A program made the position numbers and the translations under genes. Under the pieces are notes generated by a model, which did no database searches, was not told where the DNA came from, and saw nothing but the letters and a program-made list of their open reading frames with translations. From a phage, in sequence record PZ445450.1: a stretch of DNA of 64,000 nucleotides. The stretch is one strand, 5' to 3'. This document shows, one piece after another, positions 25,287 through 64,000 of this stretch; positions within the stretch are counted from its first letter, which is position 1; each line of letters begins with the position of its first letter.

Positions 25287-25305
25287 TTTCTTAACTGAAT
25301 TATCA

Positions 25306-25332
25306 AGGGGCTTAAAGGCCCCTTTCTTTTTG
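25306..25332 (+). terminator. Rho-independent terminator closing the + strand arm
   Basis: ggggcttaaaggcccc followed by tttcttttt. Confidence 0.7.
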
Positions 25333-26237
25333 TCTGCTCTTCTCCTACCATAAACGGCCCTACCTGGCAAGTGGAATAATTGACTAGCCATCAATCCCAC
25401 ATACTGTACAAATATACATGGAAAATAACTATTGCATAATCTTTCATTGTGCGGTAGCAGGGCCATTTTTACCCGTTTTCTCTCCCAAAAGTGCACGTAA
25501 TGCCGCTATTGCACAAATTTTAACCTGATGCACATATCCAATATCTTGTCAACAACTAAAAATCTTTATAAGTCATACACTTATACAGCATCGAAAGCGT
25601 GTTCTACGTGAAAAATCGAGTATAACTATAGCCGCCAGATCTCAGAATTCACGTACGCACGCCATTCTATAGCCTGCAAAGTATTTATTCCAACCACAGA
25701 ATAACGGAATAGTCAATACCTGCATAAAATAATTATTCGTGTAAACTGCATAACATAAATCAGCTCAGGTGTCAACATTTTTCGTAAACAGTCCGAAATT
25801 ATCACGATGAGTTATCATAAACAGAGAAATCTTTAGTCGTCTAATGTTTACTGTACATTACTATACTGACTGGAATCATTAGATGACTAAGAAAAAGATA
25901 AGAAATAATTAATAATGTAATTGTTTTATCTGTAACAATAAGGCAACCATGCAAACGAATGTCATGGCGCGACGGAGTCGCGACATAATATAAAAGCAGT
26001 AACCATCACCCCCGTGATAGTTTGTCTGCAATCTATTATTCAGATCATAGTTGCCTTGTATTTAGTTAATCATGACATAACAAGCAAGGCAACTATAGCT
26101 CTGATAATAGTTGCCCTGCTTTTATATTATGTCATAGATTGTTAGCTTGTTAACTGTCAGCCTGTTGGCTGTTAGCTTGTCAATTATTAAATTGCTAATC
26201 TTTATCATGCAAACGAATGTCATGGCTTATCATCTCT

Positions 26238-26294
26238 GTGTAAACAGTTTGGGCGTAAACTATTCAGGCGTAAACAGTCTATGCGTAAACAGTG
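26238..26294. repeat. Tandem approx 15-bp repeats with core GCGTAAACAG (4 copies)
   Basis: tgtgtaaacag / gcgtaaactat / gcgtaaacagt / gcgtaaacagt in tandem; GTAAACAG occurs at least 7 times between 25.7 and 27.4 kb. Confidence 0.6.
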
Positions 26295-27837
26295 AGATAT
26301 GGAATAGTAACAGCCGTTATTGTGTCATATTGTGTGACATTGTGTCCGGTGTCTGGTGTCCAGTGTGTCAGACAAGTTTTTCTCCTCTTTGTCAAGTGCT
26401 GCATGAAAAATTTACAAACTGGTATGGTAGCATTTTTGCGGCCCTGTTTACATTCAGTTGTGTATGTATAACCCTTGTTGTGTGGGCGTTTAGACGTCTA
26501 GACGGTTGGAAGTCTGCAGGTCAATATCTAATCTATCGGCTGCTAACTATATCCCACACAAATAGTAAGAAATATAATTGTTATGTGCGTAAACAGTAAC
26601 TCATGTTATCAATCCCTGTATGTATCGCCAGTGGTGCGCATAATGGGTATTATGTTAAATTGCCCGTAATGATAATGGTTCTCACAATGATAGGTATTCT
26701 CATTCATCCACACAAAATAGGTTGCAAATGTTGTGCCACTGTGTGAACGGCCTGGCCTATTAATTTCCCTCACTGCCTCGATATTTGAGAATTGTTATAA
26801 GAATGAGAAGTATTCCCATTTCGTCCGCCTGGCAGCACTCCTGTAGTCCTACAAGGACTCTAGCTGAAAGCTAGACCCTTCGGGCCTCCCTGCAGGTCAG
26901 GTCAAAATCGTGGTAGAATTGGGCTTATTCAGATATTTCTGGCCGACTCTTCAGGTCTGTGTGGGAAAAGCCAACCTCTCCGGCGGGGCAGGGGGAGGTC
27001 AATTAAAAAATTTACGTGGTGTATGAAGCGCTCTTCAGGTAAGGCAGGTATTATGGGATGAAACCCTCTTCAGGCAATGATATTTGTGGGTGTGATATTT
27101 GCTGGAAAGCCAGATATGACGGGACTCCCGGCGGGGATGGGGCAGTACAGACAGGGAAAATATGGGGATGTAGTTGGGTAAATTGATCAGACAGGTAGAG
27201 TATGGAATATGTTACAAGTATGTTAAATATGGAGGGTGAATATCTGTAGGATTTGTGTGTAAAATCAAAGACTTAAGCGGTGTTGTGGTATTTTCTATAA
27301 ATAATTCAAGTTTAATAGGTAATATTTGTCTCTATCCACTCTGTGTGGTAAACAGATTCAGATGATATTGGTTTGCAAGTGTATACATAATATACAAATT
27401 AAAGATACAAGAAACCCCCCTCCCCCTTCGGCTACCATTCACCTTTTCCTCTGACTGGTACTTAAACACTTATTCAGACTCTTCAGGTTATCACCCATAT
27501 ATCATATGGCAGTGACTGGTGTCCTCCGGCCCCTCTTTCGTCACCCGTCCGCTTCGCCATGCTAATGCCATAGCCAAATGTTCGGTTGTTCACCCTGTTC
27601 ACTCAGGTGTATCTCCATACCCCTTCAAACCGAAGAGAACAGAAAACCCGAATTACTCGGTAAAAGAAAAGAGAAGAACTTAATTTTATCATGATAGGCA
27701 AGAATGTCAAGGCATGACTGCTCACTAAACAAGCAAACAGTCATGTGTGGAAGGTAAGTGATTGTGGTGGTAGGAAATTTAGTTGAAAGATGTGTTATAG
27801 GTGCTCCCAGCACTTTAGCCGGGTAGCTAATTGTGTG

Positions 27838-60318: not shown

Positions 60319-60699
60319 TCAGTAGATGTTTTGTTTAATCTCTATTCCAAACTTCTTGAATGAGTCAGCAGCAAGCATAAATTTACGAGCTGCCGATGGA
60401 TTAGAAGTATGCACGAAAATAATCACGTTGTCAATAAGTGGTGGCTTTCCGAATACAAGTTTCTCCTCTAGCGCAGAGAAGCAGTCGTACCCTTCAAGCA
60501 CTTCACCTAGATCATTGTCAAAATGCCACTCAGAAACGCTCCTGTAGAGCTTTCTATTATCGTTAATAAAATCCATGAACTCAGAAGAGTTCTTCAGCCA
60601 AAGAGCATCTTGGATTCCGTAATTTGACGGATCTCTCAAGTCATCTAGCCACACAATCAACTTCTTCATTGCATATAGTCCTCGTTGTGAAAATAGCAA
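60319..60699 (-). CDS. Hypothetical protein
   Basis: 126 aa ORF lying between the Sir2 and ligase-like genes. Confidence 0.45.
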   Translation of the reverse strand: MLFSQRGLYAMKKLIVWLDDLRDPSNYGIQDALWLKNSSEFMDFINDNRKLYRSVSEWHFDNDLGEVLEGYDCFSALEEKLVFGKPPLIDNVIIFVHTSNPSAARKFMLAADSFKKFGIEIKQNIY

Positions 60700-61583
60700 T
60701 CAAGTATCTCACGGCGTTCCTGCTCCAGGAGGCAGTTCCACACATCTTCTGTGTAATTGCTACGAATGAAGTTTACCATGCCATAAAACTCTTCGTCAAT
60801 ACGTTTAAAGATATCATCATCCCAAATCTTCCAAGCTTTACCCCTCATTACGGCCTTCCGTGCCAAATAGTATGGAGACTTGATCTTCAGCTGCAGGTCA
60901 TAAGGGTAGTAAGGCTTACGGATCATATACCCTTCGCCCCTTGTTTCTGCAGCTAATTCTTTTGCATAGCTGAACGGGATTTCACGCACAGTGTGAGGAC
61001 GTTTTGCACCAAGGTATTTGGCAATTCCATCTAAAGCTGCTTCTGGTAGCATTATTCCAGAATCATTATATCTGCAACCTATCAAATATGCGCCATGGTC
61101 TTCTTGAACAATATGCGGATCTGAAGGGTGACAAATTTCAAACATGAATGTCATGTTTTCATTGCCCATAACCTTCTTGATAAGATCTAAATTACCACAT
61201 TGCTCTTGGATGGTTTCCTTTGCAAGGTTACAATATGGAGAATCAAGAGACCCGGTTGTTGAGAACAATAGGTCACCTTTATGAGATGATACCACACCAA
61301 GGAATCCGTTCTTTTTCTCTACCGCAGTCACAAGCTTATTGTCAGGCAGGTTGGTGGAGTTTTCTCCCAAGTTAAACACTTTTGTGAAGGGCCATGCCAC
61401 AACATTTCCTTCATTACCTACAACAATGCCTCGGCACTCCAGTAAACGAGGGGACAAATGCCATAAATTGTTGTAAAATACTTTTCTAGCATATTTATAG
61501 ATCTTTAACCCGAGATCTGGGTAATACCTACTGGTTACAAGACCTTTGTCAACTAGGTCGTCTGCATTAAAATACTTCATCAT
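60666..61583 (-). CDS. RNA ligase-like nucleotidyltransferase (Rnl2-like motifs)
   Basis: Motif I VEKKNGF (KxNG), motif IV EGYMIRKPYYP, motif V LKIKSP, compared with T4 Rnl2 EKIHGTN / EGYVLKP / IKCKN; GAGGA RBS. Confidence 0.55.
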   Translation of the reverse strand: MMKYFNADDLVDKGLVTSRYYPDLGLKIYKYARKVFYNNLWHLSPRLLECRGIVVGNEGNVVAWPFTKVFNLGENSTNLPDNKLVTAVEKKNGFLGVVSSHKGDLLFSTTGSLDSPYCNLAKETIQEQCGNLDLIKKVMGNENMTFMFEICHPSDPHIVQEDHGAYLIGCRYNDSGIMLPEAALDGIAKYLGAKRPHTVREIPFSYAKELAAETRGEGYMIRKPYYPYDLQLKIKSPYYLARKAVMRGKAWKIWDDDIFKRIDEEFYGMVNFIRSNYTEDVWNCLLEQERREILDCYFHNEDYMQ

Positions 61584-61701
61584 ACGTTCCTCATTTGTCA
61601 TTTTGTCAGTCTATCCTGTCACACAAATAACCTAGTGTCAACACTTGAAATTAACAAAACAGTTAGATATACTATCGTTGAAATTAAAACGGAGGGTCAC
61701 T

Positions 61702-62112
61702 ATGTCTAAAATGCTATATATCGTGCGTGGTCTACCAGGGTCTGGCAAATCAACACTGGCAAATGCGCTATCTTTAGAGGGTCTGTATCCACATTTTGAG
61801 AAAGACATGTTCTGGTATGACGATGACGGCAATTACAACTGGGATGCAAGTAAAGTAACACTCGCAGCGAAATGGTGCAAAGATAACGTAGAAGATATGA
61901 TGCGTATGGGATACGACCGTATCGTGGTAAGTAATACGTTTACAAAAGAAAAACATGTGCAGGAATATGTTGACATGGCAATCAGTCATGGGTATAGTTA
62001 TACCGTGATCGTGGTTGAAAACCGCCACGGTAATAAAAGCATTCATGATGTTCCAGACAAGGTTGTGGATCGTATGGAACGCCAGCTTAAAAACTGCATT
62101 AAACTTAAATGA
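61702..62112 (+). CDS. Polynucleotide 5'-kinase (T4 Pnk kinase-domain-like)
   Basis: P-loop GLPGSGKST; VVSNTF matches Pnk IISDTNL; VPDKVVDRMERQL matches Pnk VPIDVLRSMYKSM; GGAGGG RBS. Confidence 0.7.
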   Translation: MSKMLYIVRGLPGSGKSTLANALSLEGLYPHFEKDMFWYDDDGNYNWDASKVTLAAKWCKDNVEDMMRMGYDRIVVSNTFTKEKHVQEYVDMAISHGYSYTVIVVENRHGNKSIHDVPDKVVDRMERQLKNCIKLK

Positions 62113-62119
62113 GGAATGT

Positions 62120-62674
62120 ATGAAATACTTTGTAACAAGCGACACACACTTTCTCCACCAGCGGGTCATGGAGTTTGATTCATGTCAAAAACACAGATCT
62201 CAGTATGATCACAATCTTGACAGTATGAATGCGGGAATCATCGCCGAATGGAACTCTGTTGTGTCACCTGCAGACACTGTGTTCCACTTGGGAGATATTG
62301 CGTGCACTAATGATAAGAATATCAACAACTTACTTCCAGATATTCTAAATATGTTGAACGGACATATTATTCTTGTTCGTGGCAACCATGACACAAGGAC
62401 GACTGTCAGAATTATGAAAGAGTTCGGTCATGAGGTTGTAGATTATTACGAGCTTCGCCACAACAAGAATTTGATCTGTATGAGCCATTACCAATTTGCA
62501 AAGTGGAACAGAAAGCCTCACGGATCAGTCCAACTGTTCGGTCATGCTCACGGAACCACACAACAGTTGTTTGGCAGGCAGCTTGATGTCGGTTGGGATG
62601 TGTGGGGGAGACTCTTACCATTAGAAGAGGCATACCGTATTGCAATGAGTTTTGCTATTGACAGCGGGGAGTAA
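62120..62674 (+). CDS. Calcineurin-like metallophosphoesterase
   Basis: VTSDTHF, HLGDI, RGNHD and GHAH motifs; GAGGAA RBS; start refined to ATG 62120. Confidence 0.75.
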   Translation: MKYFVTSDTHFLHQRVMEFDSCQKHRSQYDHNLDSMNAGIIAEWNSVVSPADTVFHLGDIACTNDKNINNLLPDILNMLNGHIILVRGNHDTRTTVRIMKEFGHEVVDYYELRHNKNLICMSHYQFAKWNRKPHGSVQLFGHAHGTTQQLFGRQLDVGWDVWGRLLPLEEAYRIAMSFAIDSGE

Positions 62675-62721
62675 TCCCTGCTATTTTAAAGAAAATTGCC
62701 ACACAAGGAGAATCAGGAGAT

Positions 62722-63072
62722 ATGAAAGATGGGGATAAGCTGCTATATCTTAAAGTCCCCCTTGAAATACTGTCTATGTCAAAAGTTTTGAATGACACAA
62801 CTGGAGAGGTTGTTGTTCTTGACTTATATGACAAGATCGTATACTGCTACCTGCACAACTGGTACAAGCTTGGAGGAAATTCACGCTTCACACCCAGCAC
62901 AAGGAAAATTGCAGCAGATGTTGGGATAAAGAAAACAAAAGCAGCAGCGTGCGTTAAAACTTTAGAATGTGCAGGAGTGGTTGAAATATCCACACAAGGG
63001 AGAGGTAAAAGATGCACATTTTCCAAAGTTTTGCCACCAGAAGAGGTTATTCGAATGTCAACAACTGGTTAG
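62722..63072 (+). CDS. Winged-helix/HTH DNA-binding protein (putative initiator or regulator)
   Basis: TRKIAADVGIKKTKAAACVKTLECAGVVE HTH-like segment; AAGGAGA RBS; followed by a 4x palindrome array. Confidence 0.5.
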   Translation: MKDGDKLLYLKVPLEILSMSKVLNDTTGEVVVLDLYDKIVYCYLHNWYKLGGNSRFTPSTRKIAADVGIKKTKAAACVKTLECAGVVEISTQGRGKRCTFSKVLPPEEVIRMSTTG

Positions 63073-63147
63073 ACCAGTAAAAACTTAAATATCTGTACTA
63101 TAAGGATTCGTATGTTTTATGTCCACCCCAGAGCAGAGGATAGTAAC

Positions 63148-63228
63148 TGTCCGTGATACGGACACTACTGTCCGTCACGCGGACACATCTGTCCGTAATA
63201 CGGACACTAACTGTCCGTGATACGGACA
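63148..63228. repeat. Array of four 17-bp palindromes TGTCCGT-nnn-ACGGACA at 21-22 bp spacing
   Basis: Copies start at 63148, 63169, 63190 and 63212; followed by an AT-rich tract with a 9-bp inverted repeat. Confidence 0.8.
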
Positions 63229-63734
63229 CATAAAGAATATAACTAAAATAACTAAATAATAAAAAAATAAAAGATCTAGTACTTATGGTACTAAAGTGCA
63301 TATACTTAACTTATGTAGAATATACTAGATCCTAAGTACCATGTTTTAAATTTATTACTTATTGTTGGTAGTGTCGGCCCTTCATTGGCACTCGCCTACG
63401 AGGGGCGAGATGCCGGGCCTCCATAGTGCACACAATGACAGAAGTGCATACATGCAGGACTGTTAACATGTGTGGGAGCGAAGCGATAGCGCAGGCCAAA
63501 GGCAGAGCACTAATGTTGACCACCGACGAAAGCTTGCCAGCGCCGGAAGGAGTCGGTTGAGAGACTCCCGCGCGAGTTCTGATAAAGTTTATGTGTGGAA
63601 ACTGACAAGAAGGCTCCTAAATCGCTCCACAGCTATATAAACTATACCAAGTAAGGCAATCGCACCAGTTTGATAGAAAAGCTCGTTACAAAGCGATACA
63701 GTGAGTTTTTCTATAACTTGAAGAGGAGGCTGCT

Positions 63735-64000
63735 ATGAGTTCACGCAAAGATGCCCGTGAAAAGATTGCAAAACGTTATCAGGATGAAGAACAGATGGAG
63801 AAAACTTTCAAGTGGAAGCCAGGTTTCCAGCGTAATCATTCTAACGCCCGTGATCGTAAGCATCCTGATAAGTGGCTAACACCGCCAAATGATGGCATGC
63901 AGGTTGGTGATGAGAAGGAGCTATCACCTGGAAAAGATGGCAACTACATTCGCACTAAGGACGCCAGTCCAAAGGATGACAGCTATCTTGTAGATAAGGT
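63735..64000 (+). CDS. Hypothetical protein (5' partial, runs off the window)
   Basis: Strong GAAGAGGAGG RBS plus ATG; open to the window end. Confidence 0.5.
   Translation, partial: MSSRKDAREKIAKRYQDEEQMEKTFKWKPGFQRNHSNARDRKHPDKWLTPPNDGMQVGDEKELSPGKDGNYIRTKDASPKDDSYLVDK

Follow-up and report, generated by a model that had tools for sequence, protein, structure and literature searches.

What is the purpose of four evenly spaced palindromes that lie between the gene of a small DNA-binding protein and an AT-rich tract of a phage genome? This question is raised by the right end of a 64,000-bp stretch of phage DNA (PZ445450.1), which was analysed at its full length and is called the window throughout. 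The original prediction, made from the letters alone, had compared the arrangement with the origin of phage lambda and proposed initiator-binding iterons plus a DNA-unwinding element, or alternatively an operator array. Our in silico analysis documents a real, genus-wide conserved cis element together with the gene of its putative binding protein, and the combination of gene, palindromes and AT-rich tract probably serves rV5-like phages as the origin of vegetative replication, or as one of several origins. Homology, uniqueness, duplex instability, conservation and co-variation were observed directly by computation. The core of the locus comprises the following features (window positions):

62722 to 63072, plus strand: winged-helix gene (ORF79 in rV5; ORF, open reading frame) for a protein of 116 amino acids (aa), homologous to the iteron-binding N-terminal domain of the RepA_N type, without C-terminal effector domain
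63148 to 63164: iteron 1, TGTCCGT GAT ACGGACA
63169 to 63185: iteron 2, TGTCCGT CAC GCGGACA, one mismatch to the palindrome
63190 to 63206: iteron 3, TGTCCGT AAT ACGGACA; TGCCCGT in most relatives
63212 to 63228: iteron 4, TGTCCGT GAT ACGGACA
63229 to 63362: AT-rich tract, candidate DNA-unwinding element, 134 bp directly right of the array

The four predicted 17-bp palindromes at a spacing of 21-22 bp were confirmed. The sequence TGTCCGTnnnACGGACA is perfect at 63148-63164, 63190-63206 and 63212-63228 and carries one mismatch (GCGGACA) at 63169-63185; the start-to-start distances of 21, 21 and 22 bp correspond to two helical turns. The array is indeed located just downstream of the winged-helix gene, with 75 bp between its stop codon and the first palindrome. 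No further match with up to two mismatches is present in the window, and shuffled sequences contained on average 0.14 matches, none of 100 shuffles reaching four. Tandem Repeats Finder ranked the array as the top-scoring repeat of the window (period 21, 4.0 copies), and in the rV5 genome (137,947 bp) the palindrome is confined to this array at up to one mismatch. Only three copies are present in contig L035 and in phage A135, which is devoid of one 21-bp unit. In relatives whose protein is 86-91% identical, the right half-site CGGACAC is kept in every copy and the left half is slightly variable. Several GenBank records already mark the palindromes as an anonymous repeat_region.

The adjacent AT-rich tract has an A+T content of 80% versus 57% for the window. 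According to nearest-neighbour energies it represents the least stable duplex of both the window and the complete rV5 genome, ranking first at 40, 80 and 120 bp and deviating by about 4.5-5 standard deviations from the mean. It contains tandem 9-mers, ATAACTAAA, at 63239-63272 (Tandem Repeats Finder), and the 9-bp inverted repeat noticed in the original prediction proved to be perfect and to harbor GATC sites (GATCTAGTA, 63273-63281; TACTAGATC, 63323-63331). A stability minimum with short tandem repeats directly beside putative initiator sites is the composition expected of a DNA-unwinding element. The substitution divergence among eight phages amounts to 0.016 for the array and 0.007 for 63229-63330, compared with 0.07-0.087 for third codon positions of the flanking genes. 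Array and AT tract hence evolve 5-10 times slower than synonymous sites and are under strong purifying selection. The 25 bp directly left of the array (63123-63147) are hypervariable, with a divergence of 0.30 beside nearly invariant DNA.

The product of the winged-helix gene matches PHROG 12838 ('replication initiation protein'). A comparison with PDB sequences retrieved 4RO3, both with the single protein sequence (phmmer, E 1.4e-6) and with the family profile (E 1.8e-11 over 91 positions). This entry is the N-terminal domain of RepA from the Vibrio cholerae satellite PLE (PMC7145576), which binds semi-palindromic iterons, is needed for PLE replication and represents a RepA_N initiator by structure (PMC7145576; PMC8263062). 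The single-sequence AlphaFold model was unusable (pLDDT 42); the model used was based on an alignment of 13 sequences and reached a pLDDT of 80.5 and a pTM of 0.78. Its top six Foldseek matches in the PDB are chains of 4RO3 (TM 0.67) and of 4PQL, 4PT7 and 5KBJ, which are N-terminal domains of staphylococcal RepA, and CodY-type and other generic winged-helix regulators rank only after these six RepA-type chains. The product of 62722-63072 thus belongs to the RepA_N/PLE-RepA family of iteron-binding winged-helix domains.

This protein family is narrow. The phage collection holds only Vequintavirus copies of at least 88% identity, five clusters were found among 5.8 billion proteins, and 10 proteins at E ≤0.001 among 1.84 billion representatives, several of which are HTH_36/DUF6945 proteins of 182-228 aa. 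All 118 of the 118 matching Vequintavirus records carry the protein (88-100% identity) together with the conserved array. Its labels are 'replication initiation protein' in RefSeq and PHROG, based on remote homology, and '(putative) transcriptional regulator' in many GenBank records; a search of NCBIfam gave no informative name.

An exchange of alleles in the divergent Vequintavirus-like contig L029 (IMG/VR) connects the protein with its putative sites. The flanks of L029 match the window, with 89% identity in the phosphoesterase gene and 83% from a downstream GC-rich element onward, and the stretch equivalent to 62685-63372 is different. The protein allele of L029 has 143 aa and 27% identity (E 5e-7) with a common NxxTxEVV...YCYL motif. 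No TGTCCG palindromes are present in the swapped stretch of this contig; different palindromic repeats, GATACATATTTGYATCAGAT (arms TGATACA/TGTATCA), occur right after the stop codon and are followed by an A-rich tract. Protein and repeats have therefore been swapped as a pair, as expected of a cognate binding pair, and proteins and repeats are likewise exchanged in the replicon modules of PLEs (PMC8263062).

More distant counterparts were retrieved from metagenome contigs that were scanned for two adjacent iterons. The matches comprise Vequintavirus contigs and one unrelated lake contig (L033), which exhibits four similar palindromes, 22 bp apart, within a gene of 327 aa whose N-terminus is an HTH_36 domain (E 4.8e-12). 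These palindromes begin just past the winged-helix-coding part, corresponding to the layout of lambda O and pSK41 Rep with iterons within the initiator gene. Distant homologues of 182-195 aa from uncultured phages are located at the head of an operon, beside a divergent intergenic region that is flanked by primase-helicase and polymerase genes. In two of these intergenic regions (L012, L013), two AGGTACA repeats are 22 bp apart and about 15-50 bp from the least stable 40 bp of the locus; no four-copy array was found at either locus.

The AT-rich tract is followed by an element that extends the comparison to plasmids:

63366 to 63600, plus strand: conserved GC-rich structured element (RNA or single-stranded DNA), GC 51-56%

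On the plus strand this element folds better than its shuffles (z-score -2.85), and the predicted pairing is accompanied by compensatory changes. A U-A pair of the closing helix is replaced by C-G in phage Gotham, two double changes are found in the first hairpin relative to plasmid p190, and three pairs of the 6-bp core helix are changed on both sides between phages and plasmids, with a pairing of 100%. Gathering and E-value searches of 63000-63800 against Rfam revealed no RNA family. The GC-rich element may function as a priming or loading site, as a leader RNA or as a packaging signal shared with a helper.

Its core (…GACCRCYGMCGAAAGCTTGCCAGCGCCGKAAGGAG…CTCCCGCGCG) has 83-87% identity to non-coding DNA of E. 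coli plasmids (L025 = NZ_CP020521.1, L026, L027, L028). Scans of two collections with the core retrieved only one Vequintavirus-like contig from IMG/VR and no match in GTDB genomes. The plasmids are circular, non-mobilizable, 13.2-13.7 kb in size and without typed replicon; one plasmid record of 39.6 kb is a trimer of the 13.5-kb-type unit. They encode a major capsid protein, for which no tblastn match was found among phages, a tape measure (26% identity to rV5 ORF49), a tail protein (50% to rV5 ORF48) and a neck protein (45% to rV5 ORF56). Each plasmid has three to six palindromic repeats directly upstream of the GC-rich element, the last three of which are 23 bp apart, and the least stable duplex of p190 is located between its repeats and the GC-rich element. 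The order of iterons, AT-rich stretch and GC-rich element, which occupies the main non-coding region of the plasmids, is thus the same as in the phages.

The plasmids have three repeat types and winged-helix proteins of 288-306 aa. In two of them the nearly identical winged-helix proteins of 288 aa differ mainly in the recognition region, and the repeats differ as well. Judged from its sequence, the plasmid region looks like an iteron origin whose specificity can be exchanged. The plasmids do not contain the phage palindrome, and therefore no cross-binding is predicted. The gene content suggests that the 13.5-kb plasmids may be undescribed plasmid-borne satellites of rV5-like phages; our literature search found no paper on them in this role.

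The genomic setting of the locus is well conserved. The 2 kb around it share 97-98% identity with more than 100 genomes of Vequintavirus, i.e. rV5-like E. coli myoviruses of about 136 kb, with phage B9-1 as the best match. In rV5, ORF79 is found close to the start of the leftward transcription unit and is separated by 1.5 kb from the divergent junction of ORF81/ORF82, and the global minimum of the cumulative GC skew at 66-67 kb is 1.5-1.8 kb from the array. In the rV5 genome paper the origin was sought by skew analysis alone, and it was left unmapped because the skew changes track the direction of transcription (PMC3606486). The same study reported that the polymerase of rV5 is closest to that of ICP1 and that a Pif1-like helicase is encoded (PMC3606486). 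ICP1 is the helper phage of PLE, and RepA-dependent replication of PLE requires the SF1B helicase of ICP1 (PMC7145576). Our literature searches found neither transcript maps of rV5-like phages nor satellites of these phages. Three neighboring features bear on transcription across the locus:

62658 to 62687, plus strand: sigma-70-like promoter (TTGACA-18-TATTTT with TG) preceding the winged-helix gene, corresponding to promoter P76 of the rV5 record
63097 to 63125, minus strand: promoter-like site (TGGACA-17-TATAGT), leftward, antisense to the winged-helix gene and 23 bp left of the array
63735 to 64000, plus strand: 5' part of the next gene (homologue of rV5 ORF77, 192 aa when complete, truncated by the end of the window)

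The 47-bp intergenic stretch that holds the P76-like promoter is conserved (divergence 0.016), as is the -10 part of the minus-strand site in our alignment A1. The latter may give rise to an antisense transcript, reminiscent of the antisense control in RepA_N plasmids. Two candidate features were rejected. An ORF that spans the array on the minus strand (63098-63301) is not a gene, as indels of 1-2 nucleotides break it in relatives. A split initiator, with ORF77 as the missing C-terminal domain, was likewise discarded; ORF77 has no Pfam or PDB match and no similarity to the C-terminal parts of the longer homologues or of the L033 protein.

In the light of these results, the candidate origin is most likely a variant of the RepA_N/PLE-type iteron origin, with an initiator reduced to its DNA-binding domain and beside an element shared with satellite-like plasmids. 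RepA of PLE is the closest relative of the DNA-binding domain by sequence and fold, and it works with a replisome of the ICP1 type, to whose polymerase that of rV5 is most closely related. However, PLE RepA has a C-terminal domain, and the phage protein consists of the N-terminal domain only. The PLE origin has three iterons of about 30 bp, whereas four of 17 bp at a spacing of 21-22 bp are found here, and PLE is a satellite, unlike the 136-kb lytic helper-type phage. The several semi-palindromic iterons that characterize RepA_N/PLE origins have their counterpart in the four 17-bp palindromes, which co-vary with the protein allele in L029.

The RepA_N plasmid initiators of Firmicutes (pSK41 Rep, pTZ2162 RepA) share the winged-helix N-terminal fold (4PQL, 4PT7, 5KBJ) and four origin sites. 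The N-terminal domain of pSK41 Rep, comprising about 120 aa, recognizes four Rep boxes as a dimer or tetramer and introduces a bend of about 30 degrees per site into the DNA, and the essential C-terminal domain of Rep binds the primase (PMC5703833). In contrast, the phage protein has no PF06970 match, no linker and no primase-binding C-terminal domain, its boxes are located after the gene and not within it, and the host is Gram-negative. In hybrid initiators of the pPR9 type, an HTH_36 (PF13730) N-terminal domain is the origin-binding module of a working replicon (PMC5703833). This type keeps the RepA_N C-terminal domain, unlike the phage protein, whose PF13730 score is 24.5 bits at a cut-off of 25.

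The likeness to the lambda origin stands for the architecture and fails for the protein. Lambda ori contains four phased dyad-symmetric iterons by an AT-rich tract, beyond which another inverted repeat is located, and the origin is traversed by transcription. The window likewise has four phased iterons of dyad symmetry and, directly after them, an AT-rich tract. However, the protein is not a lambda O homologue (no Phage_rep_O among its Pfam matches), the iterons are outside the gene, 75 bp past its stop codon, and there is no partner resembling the helicase loader P.

The interpretation of the sites as iterons beside a DNA-unwinding element is favored by the homology of the protein, the uniqueness of the sites, the genome-wide instability minimum, purifying selection and the co-exchange in L029. 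Dimers of the ORF79 protein would occupy the four sites on one helix face and would bend and bundle the DNA, as the N-terminal domains of RepA_N proteins do (PMC5703833). The resulting complex, aided by read-through transcription from the upstream promoters, would then melt the adjacent AT tract; no transcription terminator was found. Two phage enzymes, the primase-helicase resembling T7 gp4 and the Pif1-like SF1B helicase, could be loaded onto the single strands thus exposed, a step that would parallel the dependence of PLE RepA on the ICP1 SF1B helicase. Replisome entry would rely on phage enzymes because the protein is devoid of an effector domain, and the structured GC-rich element, 140 bp further on, might assist it. 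Theta replication would then start near the junction of divergent transcription and the GC-skew minimum.

Several observations weigh against an origin, or at least against its assignment to the RepA_N type. The Pfam scores of the protein are below the cut-off for both DUF6945 (27.1 bits, cut-off 28) and HTH_36/PF13730 (24.5 bits, cut-off 25), and the Pfam scan revealed no match to PF06970 (RepA_N). The protein stops right after the winged helix at 116 aa, and one defining RepA_N feature is missing because only the N-terminal domain is present; without the C-terminal domain, which is essential in pSK41 Rep, the known recruitment route is therefore impossible. No DnaA boxes were found near the array. 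The skew minimum of rV5, the outcome of the whole-genome check suggested by the original prediction, coincides with the switch of gene orientation and is weak evidence for an origin, because skew is confounded by the direction of transcription. That the AT tract is nearly invariant suggests that its sequence serves specific roles in addition to being easily melted. Moreover, neither a homologous gene nor an array was found beside the phosphoesterase gene of Mydovirus KNP2 and of a Vequintavirinae-like Salmonella phage; the module is absent from sister genera and therefore not a core feature of the subfamily. Finally, palindromes bound by dimers also have the appearance of operators.

This last point is the basis of the alternative that was already part of the original prediction, but it appears unlikely that a dimeric regulator without any role in replication uses the four palindromes as its operator array. 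Such a regulator could repress, activate or roadblock the early read-through into ORF77, the transfer RNA (tRNA) cluster or the late genes, or the leftward antisense promoter. Palindromes of 17 bp with 4-5-bp spacers resemble lambda-type operators, a bare DNA-binding domain suits a regulator, regulators account for most of the small winged-helix proteins, and the protein bears the label 'putative transcriptional regulator' in many GenBank records. The array is also located 23 bp from the minus-strand promoter-like site and at the border between an early-looking operon and the tRNA/lysis/structural arm. For control of the gene at 63735, which we judge weaker than an origin and keep as a rival, a promoter would be expected at the array, but a scan restricted to the sigma-70 consensus found none overlapping array or AT tract on the plus strand, and this ORF is 507 bp away. 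Furthermore, the site is unique in the rV5 genome, and the closest relatives by sequence and fold are initiator domains, not repressors. An operator would leave unexplained both the least stable duplex of the genome beside the array and the same layout at the only replicon-like region of the plasmids. Initiators often autoregulate too.

Even less probable is an acquired fragment of a satellite or plasmid replicon that is kept for conflict (incompatibility, titration, decoy) or as a passenger and is not the primary origin of the phage. Its confinement to one genus and the other allele in L029 would agree with acquisition, but the protein is present in all 118 matching Vequintavirus records with a conserved array, and a working cis element would be expected to show the strong purifying selection seen in the AT tract. 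The domain family occurs both in satellite initiators and in Odn, the origin-directed nuclease of ICP1, which attacks the PLE origin (PMC8263062), and the relative P0013 (228 aa, representative search) comprises a GIY-YIG nuclease domain fused to DUF6945 in the same domain logic. The plasmids with rV5-like tail genes share the adjacent element; however, they are devoid of the phage palindrome. This absence also argues against a packaging (pac) site with the winged-helix protein acting like a small terminase subunit on repeated sites, a scenario that we regard as very improbable, since each plasmid has its own repeats and its own winged-helix protein. The rV5 genome is circularly permuted, i.e. 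packaged by headful, and neither a small terminase nor a pac site has been annotated, and the plasmids, which combine rV5-like tail genes and the GC-rich element with the lack of a terminase, would need the packaging signal of a helper. Yet the protein is homologous to initiator domains without a terminase family match (Pfam, PHROG), and the large terminase gene of rV5 is 4.3 kb away, with spanin and tRNA genes between and the winged-helix gene in an early-looking operon. The breaks of several assemblies at the array could be taken for packaging ends, but they are expected at any 21-bp tandem repeat.

Within the preferred reading of the locus as a replication origin, a portable module is conceivable, an extension that we put forward as possible but doubtful. 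An exchangeable pair of DNA-binding protein and palindrome would open the DNA, and the invariant GC-rich element would provide the entry or priming site of the rV5-type primase-helicase or a packaging signal. The 13.5-kb elements would then copy the GC-rich element in order to exploit rV5-like helpers, while keeping their own initiator-iteron pairs. The link to the plasmids suggests a helper-satellite system in E. coli that has not been recognised so far and would parallel ICP1/PLE in Vibrio.

Few coliphages are isolated as often as the rV5-like phages, which are also used in collections for phage therapy and biocontrol. If true, their origin would provide an engineering handle, e.g. for origin-bearing plasmids that are amplified on infection. 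It would also aid the study of replisomes with T7-type polymerase and gp4-type primase-helicase in large myoviruses and serve as a test of how an initiator works that has been cut down to its DNA-binding domain.

Acidic tails terminate the longer relatives P0012, P0019 and P0020 and the winged-helix protein of plasmid p190 (L025, 10595-11503, minus strand), ending in ...EAPF, ...EEPF or ...AIPY. They resemble the C-terminal tip DDDIPF of E. coli SSB and may represent a recruitment motif; no tail of this kind is present in the phage protein.

A second conspicuous region of the window is an ORF-poor stretch of 2.5 kb at about 25300-27800, which is located at a convergent junction and appears as a 'non-coding' box in the rV5 paper. 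It contains about five copies of GTAAACAG (26240-26293), TTGTGTCA-like units, three copies of TCTTCAGG and two of CTCCGGCGGGG, and two of its stretches rank second and third in duplex instability within the window. A segment of 24 nucleotides (26780-26803) shows 96% identity to the non-coding region of L025-L027, the three 13.5-kb plasmids that were compared.

RNA-repair-like genes are located around the divergent junction (window 60666-62674 and neighbors), close to the downstream tRNA cluster. The set comprises a T4 Rnl1-type RNA ligase, a cyclic-phosphate-processing receiver domain protein, an AAA_33 kinase-like ATPase and a metallophosphoesterase.

Some database records deserve a comment. 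The contigs L022, L023 and L024 and the record MG065672.1 start or end at the array (63144-63230); these ends most likely represent assembly breaks at a 21-bp tandem repeat and not physical ends. CP057073.1, deposited as an E. coli 'plasmid', is a complete Vequintavirus genome of 137.6 kb, and 18 'Campylobacter phage' records (MG0656xx) are genomes of rV5-like coliphages, with the A135 record flagged as UNVERIFIED; the labels in both cases are probably wrong.

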